A stretch of DNA of 64,000 nucleotides from assembly GCA_963666835.2 (NCBI GenBank), contig CAXXGO010000001.1, forward strand, positions 1,920,001 to 1,984,000. Reading direction: 5' to 3'. A program made the position numbers and the translations under genes. The notes beneath the pieces were generated by a model that was not told the origin of the DNA, did no database searches, and saw only the letters and a list, made by a program, of their open reading frames with translations. This DNA comes from Phycisphaerae bacterium. GTDB lineage: Bacteria; Planctomycetota; Phycisphaerae; UBA1845. The stretch's first letter is position 1; each line of letters opens with the position of its first letter. Shown in pieces: positions 10,618 to 45,756 of the stretch.

Positions 10618-11712
10618 TCACTTGATGGCCAGCAACTCCACGTCGAAGATCAGGGTTGCATTCGGAGGGATCCTCGGCGGCGAACCGCGTTTCCCGTATG
10701 CCAAGTCGCCGGGGATGATGAGCTTCCGTTTGCCGCCTACCTTCATTGTAGCCACCCCCTCGAGCCAACCCTTGATTACGCCGCCCTGCAAGCCGAAGGT
10801 GAACGGCTTGCCCCGGTCAACGGAGCTGTCGAACTTTGTACCGTCCGTCAGCCAGCCGGTGTAGTGAACTTCAACCTTGTCGGTCTTTGCCGGAGCCGGA
10901 CCATCCCCGACTTTCAGATCGATGTAGACCAAGCCGGTGTCACTTCTGACGGCCTTGGCGTTAGCTTCTTCCTCGGCTTTCTTGATAGTCTCTTGCATCT
11001 TGGCGATTTCCTTCGCTGCAGCTTCTGCTTTGGCCTTCTCCGCGGCGGCCACCATCGCGTCGGCGCGAGCTTGGAGTTTATCACGATCGACTTTGTTGAG
11101 CACGCGGGCGGTTTTGATCACGACGGGTTCGACGGGTACAACCGGCTGCCGCCCACCGCCGTACTTGGCGTGCGTGGCCACTTCGGTATCGCGGATCTTG
11201 TCGATTACGTCCATTCCTTCAACCACCCGTCCGAACACCGCGTAGGCCGCGCCGTCGCGGGGATTATCCAGCGCCGGGTTGTCCACAACATTGATGAAGA
11301 ACTGACAGGTGGCCGAGTCGGGTCTGCCGCCGAGCCGCGCCATGGCGATCGACCCGCGGACGTTCTTCAGCCCGTTCTCCCACTCGTTCTTGATGCCGTC
11401 GCGCAGACCCTCTCTCTTCTGATTGAGGTCCGGAGTGAACCCTCCGCCTTGGATCATGAACGTGCTCATGACGCGGTGGAAGATGGTTCCGTCGTAGAAC
11501 TTGTCGTCGGCATAGCGTACAAAGTTCAGCGTAGTGATCGGCGCCTTCTCTCCGTCGAGGTCGAGGACAAAGTCGCCCAAAGTGGTCTCCATCTTGACCT
11601 GGGCGTGTAGCGACAGATCTTCGGAAGTGGAGGCGGTCTTACCCGGCGTTTCGTCCGCCAGTGCATTCGCCCCCATTAACATCGCAGCCATCATCACAAT
11701 ACAACGAGCCAT
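10618..11712 (-). CDS. Secreted cyclophilin-FKBP fusion PPIase
   Basis: Signal peptide, [16 protein letters not shown]...SATCQFFIN, then FKBP motifs [24 protein letters not shown] and [23 protein letters not shown]. Confidence 0.93.
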
Positions 11713-11862
11713 GTTCAGTCCTTTCTTCTCGAGGCTAATCCTCGTTAGGCAGCCGATTCTATGTAACTTACCAGACAAGTACCGCGCGGTGTTTGCGGTC
11801 CGAGCGGTTACTCTTTCTTTTATAACCTCCGTACGCTCTGTCGACACTCGATCCCCGTTCGA

Positions 11863-13263
11863 TCACGTGGGATTCTGCCGCTTGCATCGGAAACCGAGTA
11901 ACTCAATCTCAGCAATCAGATTAGCGTCTGCGGGAACGTCCGCCGGACGGACGTTGTCGTCGAAACCCAGCTCCGAAGGGATCATCAGTCGCCGCTTGCC
12001 GCCTACCTTCATCGACACGATGCCCTCGGCCAGACCCTTAATCGGGCTTCTGTCCAGGGCGAAGGCCGAGACCTTCCCGGTCGGTCCGCTGCCGAACAGT
12101 AATGTGCCGTCCTCCATCCAAACCGTTATGTTGACCGCAACGTCGTCCGCGGCACCGGGCGATTTTCCGAACCCGGGTTCGATCTCCCAGATACTCACGC
12201 CGGAAGAGGTCTGTTGGCGTTCGATTCCCTCCAGTGGCTGAAGTTCGAGAGACGGCGCAGGCGGCTTGATCTCCAGCAATTCGACCTCGTAGACCAGCGT
12301 CGCGTTCGGCGGGATCGACCCGCCTCCTTTCTCGCCGTACGCCAACTCCGGCGGGATTCGCATTCTCCGCTTTCCACCAAGGCGCATTGTTCTGAGCCCC
12401 TCGCGCCATCCGGGGAAGACGTGGTCCAGCGAGAAAGTGGAAGGGCGGCCCCGCTTCGAGGAAGCCTCGATCAGCGTGCCGTCCTCCAACCAGCCGGCGT
12501 AGTTCACCGTTACCGTGGAATGGGCCTGTGGATGCGGGCCATTACCGATTCGCAAATCCCAGTACTTCAGACCCGATCCGGTCGTTACCGGTTCAATCCC
12601 ATCCAATGAGGACTGCATCGGGGGCTGCTTGATCCGCAGGAGCTCTACCTCAAACCGCAGGTCGGCGTTGGGTGGAATATACGGTGGACGACCCTCGGCG
12701 CCATAGGCCAACTTGGCGGGAACCAACAGTTGGCGAATGCCCCCAAGGCGCATCGTCCAGACGCCCTCATAGAATCCCTTCGCCGTTCCCTGTTTAGAGT
12801 AGGCGGGGTTATATCCCTGGTGAGCCGAACTGTCGAAGAGGGTGCCGTCAGTCAGCCACGCCCGGTACGAGACCTGCACGGTTGCATCCGGGTGCGGAAT
12901 CTCGCCTTCGCCCACCCGGATGTCCCAGTACTTCAACCCGGAATCGGTGACTATCGCCTTATTCTCATCGACCGGAGTCGGGTTCGGGTCGGGGGGCTCC
13001 ACGCCCGGTGGGAAAGGCCGCGCGACCTTGTTAACCGATACCGAGGCCCCCTCAAGAATCTCTCCGGTTTTGGCGTCCCTCAGCACCGCTCCCGGAACGG
13101 CGGCAGGCTGCTCAGGGTCGCTCCGGGCTTCCTTGGGATCCGAGCCGTCTCCACGCTTCGTGTCGGCGGATCCGTCCCCGCTGGAAGTCTGGGCCAACAG
13201 GGCGCGGCCCGCACCGAACGCTATGATTAGAATGAACGCTGTCCGGAGCATTCGTTGATTCAT
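11863..13263 (-). CDS. Secreted protein with three tandem FKBP-type PPIase domains
   Basis: Signal peptide and three repeats of SG(L/V)xxW(D/E)...DGTL...GGxRx...P(P/A)(N/D)AxL. Confidence 0.92.
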   Translation of the reverse strand: MNQRMLRTAFILIIAFGAGRALLAQTSSGDGSADTKRGDGSDPKEARSDPEQPAAVPGAVLRDAKTGEILEGASVSVNKVARPFPPGVEPPDPNPTPVDENKAIVTDSGLKYWDIRVGEGEIPHPDATVQVSYRAWLTDGTLFDSSAHQGYNPAYSKQGTAKGFYEGVWTMRLGGIRQLLVPAKLAYGAEGRPPYIPPNADLRFEVELLRIKQPPMQSSLDGIEPVTTGSGLKYWDLRIGNGPHPQAHSTVTVNYAGWLEDGTLIEASSKRGRPSTFSLDHVFPGWREGLRTMRLGGKRRMRIPPELAYGEKGGGSIPPNATLVYEVELLEIKPPAPSLELQPLEGIERQQTSSGVSIWEIEPGFGKSPGAADDVAVNITVWMEDGTLLFGSGPTGKVSAFALDRSPIKGLAEGIVSMKVGGKRRLMIPSELGFDDNVRPADVPADANLIAEIELLGFRCKRQNPT

Positions 13264-41437: not shown

Positions 41438-41799
41438 AAGCCACGGGTCTCCCGGCGGTTCTGCCGCAAGCCGGAGAGACAAGCTCTCGGCATTTGTCGC
41501 CGTCACTGCCCGCTTGGCGTAGTGTCGAAGCTGGGATCATGGGCCAACTTGTTGACCCGGGTTGCCGGAGTCCCCCGCTTCGGACGGTGTCGAAGCACTC
41601 CTACGCATCTCCACCGTGGCACGTTACGTGTGCCGCTCTCGGGCGCCGTCGCGTCCGGGCGATAATTCCTTGGTTGGAGTTGCCTAGCCCATTATACTGT
41701 TACGTGTTGTTGTCGGAGGGGATCGGGGCAACCTCCCTGCTGCGACCCCACCGAGCATCTCATGAGTTGGAGCGAGGTCTGTTTGCGAAGGAGGAAGTA

Positions 41800-44700
41800 A
41801 TGAGCGCGTTGTTACCCCGGTTAACGAGCAAGTGCTGTACGTGTTGGTGGCCCGTTGCGGCCCTTGTGGCTGTTGCGGGCCTTTCCCTGCCGGCCGTCGG
41901 CGCGGATCGTGTCGTGCTCTGCGAAGAATTCACGGCCACTACGTGAGGGTATTGTTCTACCGCGGGTACCGCGTTAGGCATGATGTTGAACAACTATCCC
42001 GACACGTTCACGGCCGTTCAGATCCACCCCTTCAGCGACGGCTACAACACCGCTTGGAGTGCCGCACGCGGCACGTTCTACGGCGTTGGCGGCACGCCCA
42101 GCGCCCGATTCGACGGCGTGCTTACGTGCCACGGAGCTCAACCGAGTGTGGGCCAACAATACACTTGGTTCCTCGACCAATACAACGCTCGGCAGGCCGT
42201 GCCGACTGACGTGACCATCGAACTCTGCGGCGTCGAGGATAGCGCCCCTACGTTCGACGTCACCGCACGAGTGTGCATCGAGCCCGGTGGAACCGGCAAG
42301 ACCATGCGCATTCACATGGTCCAGGTTCTGGACAACTGGCCCAACCCGCCGACGTATTCGCGGTACACGCAGGTGCTGGCCAACAACGCTCCGGACATCA
42401 CCCTCGGCGCCGGCGAGTGCGCCGAGGTCGAAACGAGTTTTACGTTCGATTCGGCGAGCTGGTCCAACCAGGAAGATATCAAGATTGTCGCCTGGGCGCA
42501 GGATACGCTGTCGTCCGGCCCTTCCGAGGTCTACCAGGCCGCCCAGATGCACTGGCCCTTCGAGGCGTGCGCCCTCGAGCTGGAGTGGGTCGACGTGGGC
42601 GATGCGGGGAACACCGGGGAGCTTTCGGGGGCAGGTGCCGGTGGTGCCGGCCCGGACCGCATCTGCGGCGCGGTTGACTATGAGTACCGCATCGGGATGT
42701 TCGAGGTGACGAACGAGGAGTACCTCGACTTCCTCCAGATGGTCGCCAGCGAGGATACGAACGGCCTCTACAACGCGGGCATGTCCGGCACGGACGGCGG
42801 GATTGTCCAGGAGGGGAGTTCGCCCAACTACACGTACCGGATCAAGGACGACACCTGGCTCCGTAAGCCGGTCAACTATGTCAACTTCTACGACGCTCTT
42901 CGCTTCGCTAACTGGATGCACAACGGGCAGCCGGAGGGGGCGCAGGACGCCTCGACCACCGAGGACGGGGCGTATGACATGTCCCTCGGCGCCGCTGTGG
43001 TTCGCAAGCCTGGCGCTCTGTTCTTCTTAACGAGTGAAGACGAGTGGTACAAAGCGGCTTACTACAAGAGTGGGGGGACCGGTGCGGGGTATTGGGATTA
43101 TCCGACAGCGTGGGACACGGCCCCGACGTGCGAGGTGCCGCCTGGCACCGATGCGGTTAACGGATCGGCCAACTGCGACGATGCCGTCGGGGGTCTCACG
43201 GATGTTGGTGCCTATAACTTCAAGCCTTCCGTCAGTGCGTACGGCACTTTCGACCAGGCGGGCAACGTCTGGGAGTGGACCGAAGAGGACCTTAACGGCG
43301 ATGGTTCGAGGCGCGTGATTCGCGGGGCGTCATTCTACGCCCCGAGCGGCAGCGCCCAGATGCACGCGGCACACCGGGACTCCATCGTTCCCGGCGACTA
43401 CTTTAATATCGGCTTCCGCCTTGCCAGTTTTGCCGACTGTGACGAGAACGGCATTCCGGACCTTTGCGACTTCGACTGCTCCGCGGTTGAAGGTGTGTTC
43501 TGCGATGTTGCCGGTTGTGGGCTTGGAACGGACTGCAACGGTAACGGGTATCTCGATGTGTGCGATATTCTCGAGTGCCCGGAGGCTGATCCGGCCTGTG
43601 CGGACTGCAACGGTAACAGCTTCCCCGACGAGTGCGATCTGGATCCAAGCGATCCGGATGGCAACGGGCAAGTAAGCCCGGACTGCGACTCCAACCTTGT
43701 GCCGGATGAGTGTCAGCCGGACTGCGACGGTGATGACACCCCGGACGTCTGCGAACTCTGCCCGTTCGGGTCGAGTATGGACTGCAATCTGAACGACATC
43801 CCGGACGAGTGCGACATCGCCGACGGGTTCAGCGAAGATTGCCAGGCCAACGGCCGGCCGGACGAGTGCGATGTGTACGCCGGCGCCGGGATGACCGACC
43901 CGGCTTCGTGGAATACGTACGACGCCGGGGCGAATGGCGTTGGCGTCGATCCGGACGGATACCGCGGCGCGATCTACGACGGTACGCGGCATGTGTACTT
44001 CGTGCCGTCCCGCAACGAGGTGGGCCAGCCGCACGCGGAGGTCCTTCGCTACAACACCTCCCTCGGATCGTTCGATAATCCGGCGTCCTGGACCTCGTAC
44101 GAGCCGACGGGCACGATAGGCGATTTTGCCGGGGGCGCCTTCGACGGCCAGTACGTCTACTTCGCTCCGGCAGGGCACGGCTCGTACGCTCAGATCCTGC
44201 GCTACGATACCCAAAGCGCCTTCGACAACCCGGCGGCTTGGGAGACATGCCAACCGGCCGGGACCGACGGCGGTTACAGCGGCGCCGTGTTCGCCGGGGA
44301 CCACGTGTACTTCGTGCCCTACGATACGACAGGCGGCGCGAATAGCACGGTTCTGCGCTTCGACACGCAAACCGGCGGAGGTTTCTGCGATGCCGGATCG
44401 TGGGAGACGTACGACCCCGGCACCGCCGGCATGTACCGCGGCGGTGCTTCCGACGGCCGCTATTTGTATCTCGCCGGGCACGGCGGATCTACGGCGGGAA
44501 CCGTCCACGGCGAAATGCTCCAGTACGACATGCAGGGCGCTTTTGACGATGCCGCATCGTGGGTGACGTTCGACACGGTGGCCGATCCCGACCTGCAGGC
44601 CAAGGGTGGATACACGGGCGTAGTGCAGGCCGGCCGGTTCATCTACTTCATTCCGGACATGGACAACACCGGGGCGTATCACGGACAGGTGCTGCGGTTC

Positions 44701-45756
44701 GATACTGCTGCCGGGCAGTGGTTCGACGATGAGTTCTTCTGGCGGAAGTTCGAGTTCGCGGTCGCTGACGAGTGCGACCCGTGCATGGATTGCAACAACC
44801 CCGTAGGGTACGACGGCGCCGTCTATGATGGCCAGCAGTTCGTCTATTTCGTCCCGCATCATCGTGGCGGAGCTCAACCCCACGGTGAGGTGCTGCGGCT
44901 CGACACGGCCGGGGAGTTCAACGATGCGTCATCGTGGGCAACGTACGACTATGGCATTAGCAGCGAGTGCGCGGCTGATCCGGGTTGCGTTGATCCGGAT
45001 GGTTACTCGGGTGCGGCAACCGACGGGCGTTACGTCTACTTCTCTCCGTTAGAGAACGAGCCCGGGGCGTATCACGGTGAGGTTCTCCGGCTCGATACGA
45101 TGGTGGGATGGTCGAGAGATTGCGACGACGGCGGGATTCCGGACGAGTGCGAAATTGTTGCACCAGCGAGGGTCGTCGATGATGTGGCGAAGAATCGCTA
45201 TCTCTCGTTTGACCCGGAAAACGACGGCTTGTGTACCGGATTCCAGGTGGCGGTGACCTCCAGCGTTTTGTTCCCAACCTGTTCGGGGATCGTGGGCTGG
45301 GTCGGTGAGCCGTTCGAGGCGGAGCCCGGCGTCTGGGTGGCACGCGTAACCGATGAGCCGTACTTCGGTGGCGATTGGCCGGCAGAGGTCCATATTGCCG
45401 ACTGCGAAATAGCACCGGCGACAGCGTACGAGGTTCGGGCCTCGGCGGATGGTATCGGGTTCTCTGCGCCGCTGGCGGTGAGCACGATTGACCTGCCGGC
45501 TCCGAAGTACTGGTGCGATGTCGTTGGCGATTTCATTGAAGGAGCATGGACCGCCCCGCAAGGGACGGTCAACATGAGCGACATCATGGCGGTGTTGCAG
45601 AAGTTTTCTTCAGCGCCGGGCGCTCCGCCACTGCCTTGGATGGATCTGGACCCTGAGGTGCCCAACACGATCGTGAATATGACCGATGTTCAGCGTGCGG
45701 TGGAGTGCTTCAAGGGCGGGTATTATCCGTTCAGCGATCCCTGCGCTTGCCCGTAG
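41800..45756 (+). CDS. Candidate secreted selenoprotein of 1318 aa (Sec at codon 49): Omp28/thioredoxin-like UxxC domain, FGE-sulfatase (SUMF1) domain, Cys/Asp-rich repeats, 7-repeat beta-propeller and C-terminal domain
   Basis: AAGGAGGA RBS before ATG 41800, then a signal peptide ending AVGA and DRVVLCEEFTATT-TGA-GYC. This is in frame with the 1258-aa ORF starting at 41980, which has no RBS or signal peptide of its own. Confidence 0.85.
41953..41980 (+). promoter_or_regulatory. Candidate bacterial SECIS element
   Basis: Hairpin 3' of the UGA: upper stem CGCGG/CCGCG (41961-65/41969-73), G-first loop GUA starting 19 nt after the UGA, and lower stem UCUA/UAGG. Confidence 0.6.

Follow-up and report, generated by a model that had tools for sequence, protein, structure and literature searches.

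A predicted selenocysteine codon in the thioredoxin-like head of a large exported protein from a Phycisphaerae bacterium

Here, we analyzed a 64,000-nucleotide stretch of DNA (the window) from a Phycisphaerae bacterium (GenBank assembly GCA_963666835.2, contig CAXXGO010000001.1, positions 1,920,001 to 1,984,000) and conclude that positions 41800 to 45756 of its plus strand form one gene for a predicted exported multidomain protein of 1,318 residues, in which the UGA at codon 49 would be decoded as selenocysteine (Sec). We put the probability of this reading at about 0.92. An initial annotation of the window had proposed an extracytoplasmic selenoprotein of this length, and four lines of evidence agree with that proposal: the comparison of the codon across homologues, a hairpin that follows it, the Sec genes of the genome, and the predicted fold of the protein. 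Sec insertion and export are what these lines of evidence lead us to infer. A hidden selenoprotein with a UxxC motif will not in itself surprise a specialist, and proteins of this kind have been predicted since 2008. The head of this protein, which is missing from the public gene call, belongs to a branch mainly of Phycisphaerae in which it is joined to many different partners, including multihaem cytochromes encoded next to a [NiFe] hydrogenase.

The UGA codon, its reading frame and its column in homologues

The frame opens at ATG 41800, 5 nt downstream of a Shine-Dalgarno-like GGAGG (41790 to 41794); when TGA is translated as Sec, it closes at the TAG at 45754 to 45756, and the TGA at 41944 to 41946 is the sole recoded codon. 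All features of the gene lie on the plus strand. Residues 1 to 35 (41800 to 41904) are a predicted signal peptide of the Sec export type, which ends in ...VGA before DR and in which basic residues precede a hydrophobic core (11-residue Kyte-Doolittle means reach 2.4 across residues 18 to 30). Equivalent leaders, which end in (A/G)(A/G)-(D/E/K/Q)-R, are present in homologues. The initial annotation had pointed to this ribosome binding site, start codon and leader, and to a TGA followed by Gly, Tyr and Cys in a frame that stays open into a 1,258-residue open reading frame (ORF). Both are read here as it described them: the sequence runs ...VVLCEEFTATT, TGA, GGG TAT TGT, making the putative Sec, U49, the first residue of a UGYC motif (41944 to 41955).

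We compared this codon across homologues in two sets. The first, from 61 genomes (the source and 60 relatives), gave 24 matches in nine genomes, and their alignment places TGA in the Sec column in 19, Cys in four (all CxxC), and Tyr in one. With 19 of the 24 homologues sharing TGA at one position, chance is excluded. The second set overlaps the first and comprises 75 loci from species-representative genomes, found with a 12-row alignment as the query; most are metagenome-assembled genomes of Phycisphaerae/Phycisphaerales, with a few Acidobacteriota and one Methylomirabilota. There, the column holds TGA at 50 loci, Cys at 20, Gly at two, and Tyr at one, and two loci were not alignable. A six-frame search with the first 260 residues also recovered two paralogues in the source genome, 50% and 47% identical to the studied gene, each with one TGA; their motifs, UGGC and UAAC, occupy the column of UGYC. 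The alternation of Cys and TGA that had been suggested as a check is therefore seen, at one column and with conserved coding on both sides, in the 24- and the 75-locus sets alike. The Cys forms read E(E/L)FTATWCxxC, in keeping with the Omp28/thioredoxin-like motif that the initial annotation had named, and the fold (described below) matches those of HBP35 and Omp28.

These counts bear directly on the idea that the locus is a pseudogene, in which a lone nonsense mutation struck the Cys codon of a CxxC protein and left the 1,258-residue ORF as a decaying remnant or a leaderless product. Cys forms of the same domain do exist (4 of 24 and 20 of 75), and gene callers do treat the TGA as a stop. However, TGA is the majority state at the column, the two paralogues included, where a lone nonsense allele would have Cys in all close homologues; coding is intact on both sides of the codon across 1,318 codons; and a covarying hairpin after the TGA and a set of Sec genes, both described below, are present. 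We consider a pseudogene highly improbable.

Some members of the family depart from the UxxC pattern. Three Sec forms (L100, L118, and L125) are without the resolving Cys and read UGPDF, UPAS, and UGADP. A separate subgroup has Gly at the column in a TG(A/L)PC motif (P0004, P0006, P0009, P0010, P0013, P0015 to P0017, P0019, and P0020; L110 and L130) and, with a single motif Cys, presumably has different or lost chemistry.

A more generic alternative, for which nothing specific speaks, is that TGA has been reassigned to Trp, Gly, or Cys, throughout the genome or by context, or that the codon is an assembly error. Against it, TGA terminates 10 of the 30 nonoverlapping ORFs of at least 300 residues in the window, and in three of these (a cyclophilin-FKBP, a prolyl oligopeptidase, and a TrkA-type protein) a Pfam match extends to 3 to 4 residues from the TGA, in line with the earlier view that there is no genome-wide reassignment. 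Three homologous genes of the 24-match set also use TGA as their true terminal stop, and the genome has a tRNA-Sec with anticodon TCA. As for the assembly, the initial annotation had called for a check of the codon in sequencing data; contigs (not reads) from runs of two studies, one of which may be the source sample, cover 41944 to 41946, and both keep the TGA. The contig from one run has zero differences over 41600 to 42074, and that from the other run, which covers the whole stretch, has three differences, all outside the codon. We regard reassignment or error as scarcely credible. A second contig of 289 bases in one run, covering 42045 to 42333, has 36 differences that are mostly spaced in multiples of 3, and it has the look of an allele of the gene or of a related strain that co-occurs with the source.

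Gene callers that use translation table 11 report the truncated ORF of 1,258 residues at 41980 to 45756, as the initial annotation had expected of standard callers, and a public protein (P0087) that is 98% identical is a call of 1,257 residues. Among 85 database homologues of the head module, 66 begin downstream of the Sec column, many at M..D.YPDTF, and so have the look of truncated gene calls. The 19 that are full length have Cys (CxxC) in nine cases and Gly in 10 at the column, and names among the 85, where given, are always "hypothetical protein." The downstream ORF had been said to lack a ribosome binding site and an export signal of its own. No GGAGG-like site is seen upstream of ATG 41980, and its product would start MMLNNYPDTF without a hydrophobic leader.

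The same start codon leads to one further alternative, namely that the locus mostly yields a 48-residue peptide ending at the UGA, or a 1,258-residue protein from ATG 41980, with Sec inserted rarely or only when selenium allows. An in-frame ATG-ATG is present at 41980, and decoding of UGA as Sec is always in competition with termination. The missing ribosome binding site and leader count against a product from this start, which, judging from the structural model, would also cut the thioredoxin fold past strand 1 and lose the active site. Furthermore, the upstream leader and the EEFT motif are conserved in all Sec forms, which would make no sense unless the joined protein were produced. We think it very unlikely that the truncated products prevail and favor decoding of the UGA as Sec to give the joined, 1,318-residue protein.

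A SECIS-like hairpin and the selenocysteine machinery

Immediately downstream of the codon is a hairpin, CGCGG-GUA-CCGCG (41961 to 41973), that resembles a bacterial selenocysteine insertion sequence (SECIS). Its stem starts 14 nt past the UGA, in keeping with the spacing accepted for bacterial SECIS elements, and, with the U of UGA as base 1, the G of its loop is base 23. A hairpin occurs at this place in all 19 Sec forms of the first set. When these are aligned, pairing is seen in 88.7% of the cells of a 7-pair helix, with double changes in 10 cells; compensatory changes are found at two pairs (GC in 14 and CG in 4 at one, and AU in 8, CG in 3, and GC in 2 at the other). None of 500 shuffles matched the observed pairing or covariation, and controls slid along the alignment reached at most 51% pairing. 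A GGT run (G22 G23 T24 of the first sequence), which closes the stem and opens the loop, is invariant.

Forms without Sec differ in this respect. In the five non-Sec forms of the first set, 19 of 35 cells are paired, and two of them (L050 and L054) keep the AG(T/P)A peptide that the hairpin encodes but use codons that break the stem, which points to a constraint at the level of RNA. The larger set of 75 loci gives the same contrast: a stem of at least 5 bp is present in 49 of 50 Sec forms and 13 of 20 Cys forms, a stem of at least 6 bp in 39 of 50 and 4 of 20, and the mean minimum free energy is -10.3 kcal/mol for Sec forms and -7.5 kcal/mol for Cys forms (Mann-Whitney p 2e-4, with kin that are not independent).

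The genome (6.02 Mb in seven contigs, 92% complete) contains selA, selB, selD, and the tRNA-Sec (selC), all with scores that exceed curated cut-offs; the initial annotation had named this set as one to look for, and all of it is present. The tRNA-Sec scores 68.4 bits against Rfam (cut-off, 47), and ARAGORN identifies it as SeC, anticodon tca. The selA gene (568.4 bits) adjoins selB (335.7 bits, including its neighboring stretch), and selD is present twice (391 and 368 bits). The second copy (G000:C6:1524395; L019 local 1531) has an in-frame TGA in a GUAAK motif, ...TTAAGUAAKM..., and is thus itself a predicted selenoprotein. The hairpin of this selD, GGCGCAG-GUA-CUGCGCC, lies farther from its UGA than the one at 41961 to 41973 does but has an identical G-GUA-C apex. 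The other selD match sits in a 740-residue open frame without TGA and is possibly a fusion.

Across the 61 genomes of the first set, selA scores above the cut-off in 53. Sec decoding is therefore the rule in this lineage, and, for the same reason, co-occurrence with selA has no discriminating power for the gene studied here. We did not find selA in one relative (G003, 90% complete), although that genome has Sec forms.

Fold, relatives and proposed activity

We modeled residues 31 to 260 with AlphaFold2 from a 77-row alignment and obtained a mean predicted local distance difference test (pLDDT) of 95.1 and a predicted template modeling score of 0.92. The model consists of a thioredoxin fold followed by a beta-sandwich, and beta-strand 1, which is encoded upstream of the TGA, is part of the sheet. 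The thioredoxin-fold domain spans residues ~35 to 135 (41902 to 42204; VIA Z of 8 to 9 to thioredoxins over model residues 5 to 105). The putative Sec is model residue 19, and the Cys of the motif is model residue 22, where helix 1 (22 to 35) begins; the family alignment shows a nearly invariant Thr-Pro pair (P70). The Omp28-like beta-sandwich spans residues ~136 to 256 (42205 to 42567; Z of 8.7 to the Omp28 domain 2r2c over model residues 106 to 226). Taken as a whole, the two-domain module is by far closest in structure to HBP35 of Porphyromonas gingivalis (5y1a; Z of 22.4, root mean square deviation of 3.1 over 218 residues, Foldseek E of 5.7e-11), followed by 2axo (Z of 19.0). The thioredoxin family PF00085 gave no hit in the studied protein and a subthreshold one (E ~2e-4) in three of 22 homologues.

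The match to HBP35 offers an activity that can be tested, disulfide reduction. HBP35 is exported, as predicted for the studied protein, and likewise has an N-terminal redox motif in the same two-domain module; from the aligned ranges, its C48 and C51 are at about the same place as U49 and C52, an approximate correspondence. One report on HBP35 states that it reduces insulin in vitro, that the C48S/C51S change abolishes this activity, and that the gene complements an Escherichia coli dsbA mutant (PMC2907840). The two proteins differ in that HBP35 has Cys and not Sec, shares ~15% sequence identity with the studied protein, and binds hemin. HBP35 is also reported to have a conserved C-terminal domain linked to secretion by the Por system and to surface attachment, whereas none was detected by Pfam and NCBIfam in the last 234 residues of the studied protein.

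Of the named families, NCBIfam NF045500 (Omp28-related selenoprotein) matches residues 34 to 250 with an E value of 1.9e-15, and the two paralogues reach 86.4 and 44.2 bits against it. A 2026 review treats NF045500 and "Hypothetical protein GOS_C" (motif UxxC) as one family in its Table 1 (PMC13188914). GOS_C was predicted by Zhang and Gladyshev in 2008, with 74 Sec sequences and 312 Cys homologues, a thioredoxin-like fold, SECIS-like elements, and no function known at the time (PMC2398784). Common to GOS_C/NF045500 and the proteins studied here are a predicted UxxC selenoprotein, a thioredoxin-like fold, many Cys homologues, and a SECIS-like hairpin past the UGA. Unlike them, the studied branch is separate and mainly of Phycisphaerae, and its module heads large multidomain proteins, here of 1,318 residues with SUMF-like and propeller domains. 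The NF045500 cut-off was reached in none of 201 genomes sampled from the phylum, in which the other hits cover only the C-terminal repeat region of the model; this marks the branch as divergent and not as part of the curated family. By its sequence, then, the studied protein is a real, mis-annotated, and divergent relative of the predicted GOS_C/NF045500 family.

Other comparisons are more distant. The lipoprotein family NF033782 (lipoprot_Omp28) scores 24.5 bits, over residues 29 to 77 only, against a cut-off of 150, and no lipobox can be read in the leader. The DsbA-like, DsbG-like, and thiol:disulfide interchange selenoproteins listed in the 2026 review (PMC13188914) are likewise predicted extracytoplasmic oxidoreductases, with Sec as the nucleophile of a CxxC-type motif in a thioredoxin fold, but they belong to PF01323, NF041057, and PF13098 and are without the Omp28-like sandwich or a long multidomain tail. 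A literature search found no paper that joins "Omp28" with "selenoprotein." On selenoproteins of Phycisphaerae it found only PMC4807772, the available portions of which do not mention the family studied here.

Beyond the head, the protein continues with a domain of the FGE-sulfatase (SUMF) type at residues 295 to 542 (42682 to 43425; PF03781, 68.4 bits), the closest PDB sequence to which is SUMF2/pFGE (1y4j, E of 2.3e-7). The segment RGASFYAPSGSAQMHAAH of this domain, which we take to be the place of the two catalytic cysteines of formylglycine-generating enzyme (FGE) after its RGxS motif, contains no Cys. In this, the domain resembles SUMF2, an inactive paralogue of FGE that is also of PF03781 and without Cys at the FGE catalytic positions; it differs from SUMF2 in being bacterial and embedded in a selenoprotein. 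Next come Cys/Asp-rich repeats of the CDxNGxPDxCD type at residues ~545 to 690 (43432 to 43869), recognized by direct reading, for which EF-hand hits were subthreshold only. A seven-bladed beta-propeller at residues ~699 to 1104 (43894 to 45111) is predicted from the consensus of its ~55-residue repeats (...GAxFDGRYVYFxP...HGEVLRYDT...) and from a model with pLDDT mostly above 90 over model residues 10 to 415, and Foldseek matches it to propellers of the Kelch, YncE, and WD40 types (E ~1e-10).

The protein ends in a domain at residues ~1105 to 1318 (45112 to 45753) that matches no Pfam or NCBIfam family and is modeled with pLDDT mostly below 50. It recurs in the paralogue at G000:C6:954358-955896, with which it shares the sequence KNRY(L/I)SF...VNM(T/S)DV...PY. 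That paralogue (L032:1453-2991) is a protein of 513 residues with a UGGC motif, composed of the Sec module, an acidic linker, and a C-terminal domain homologous to that of the studied protein (its last ~210 residues).

We propose the following mechanism, with the in vitro behavior of Cys48 and Cys51 of HBP35 as the guiding analogy. SelB carrying Sec-tRNA(Sec) would bind the hairpin on the translating mRNA and place Sec at codon 49, and the signal peptide would direct the protein out of the cytoplasm. There, the selenol of U49 may act as the nucleophile toward disulfides of the substrate or toward other electrophilic sulfur; the thiol of C52 would then resolve the selenylsulfide, in the manner of thioredoxin-fold oxidoreductases. 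The downstream parts of the protein (SUMF2-like domain, Cys/Asp-rich repeats, propeller, and C-terminal domain) may be scaffolds for binding or anchoring, through which the redox head reaches its substrate.

Several observations weigh against this interpretation. The match to NF045500, at 57.1 bits, does not reach the curated cut-off of 200, and searches of the PDB with the module by sequence only were not significant, either for thioredoxins (E ~0.4 to 0.8) or for HBP35 (E of 0.44). Because the hairpin falls within the codons of a conserved peptide, AG(T/P)A, its conservation partly reflects constraint on the protein, and four Cys forms (L063, L074, L107, and L124) retain a good hairpin; these are perhaps relics, possibly of recent conversion from Sec to Cys. 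The 60 nt past the UGA fold no more stably than shuffled sequence (z of -0.85, 39 of 200), and an Rfam scan of 41700 to 42300 at E values up to 10 gave no match. The neighboring genes (FtsH, a YfiO/TPR protein, a zinc alcohol dehydrogenase, unknowns, a TPR protein, VanZ/DUF498, CAP, and a MqnA-like protein) show no functional link to the selenoprotein gene and give no clue to its function. Finally, selenium in the protein is predicted from sequence, and we infer the redox role and the roles of the other domains by analogy.

A scan for promoters and terminators found no promoter-like site, and terminator-like sites were not commoner than in shuffles. The sequencing runs listed for this stretch include none of RNA. 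A profile search of the PDB with the module returned, as its top hits, the dockerin/EF-hand tails of homologues. At 10618 to 13263, on the minus strand, are two adjacent peptidyl-prolyl isomerase genes, one for a cyclophilin-FKBP fusion of 409 residues and one for a protein of 466 residues with three FKBP_C stretches; both end in TGA.

Cytochrome fusions, hydrogenase genes and wider meaning

The head module is not confined to proteins built like the one studied here. Across 22 homologues, it is found fused to dockerin-type modules, to TSP3 repeats with a multihaem cytochrome, to a beta-helix, or to galactose-binding-like or Ig modules, and, given this variety of fusions, it behaves like a portable unit at the N terminus of exported proteins. 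The cytochrome fusion is found at 23 of the 75 loci (12 Sec and 11 Cys forms), with up to nine CxxCH motifs in the sequence examined.

One of these fusions is a paralogue in the source genome (G000:C6:886598-889069) in which the Sec module is fused with TSP3 repeats and with a cytochrome c of the multihaem type. The stop of this gene overlaps the start of the next, which encodes the small subunit of a [NiFe] hydrogenase and is followed by the large-subunit gene (G000:C6:886598-891560; L138:7599-12556). A Cys form in G003 (L141) has the same order of cytochrome fusion, small subunit, and large subunit; in G054 (L140), a small-subunit-like gene follows the fusion, and no large subunit was found. 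We tested five further fusion records (L090, L091, L093, L109, and L123), and all five have the C-terminal domain of a hydrogenase small subunit within ~1 kb or less downstream on the same strand. This arrangement suggests that, in this subfamily, the module may be wired to a periplasmic electron chain from H2 to haem. A literature search on Phycisphaerae, NiFe hydrogenase, and multiheme cytochromes returned nothing on such an arrangement in titles and abstracts.

These gene orders lead us to a broader idea, which we offer tentatively and think improbable as it stands: that Phycisphaerae-type bacteria use the HBP35-like Sec module as a portable extracytoplasmic redox head, grafted on varied scaffolds. 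In the cytochrome fusions it might work as an H2-driven haem-to-selenol reductase, and in the gene studied here, where its scaffold includes a SUMF2-like domain and a propeller, as a substrate-targeted surface reductase or isomerase. If true, this would be the first functional context for selenoproteins of the GOS_C type.

Public annotation drops the catalytic head of the studied protein and of most of its relatives, so the use of selenium by widespread uncultured Planctomycetota is undercounted. Pairs of Sec and Cys forms inside single genomes are natural controls. The most useful new lead is the link between the cytochrome fusions and the hydrogenase, for a family whose function was unknown when GOS_C was predicted in 2008 (PMC2398784).

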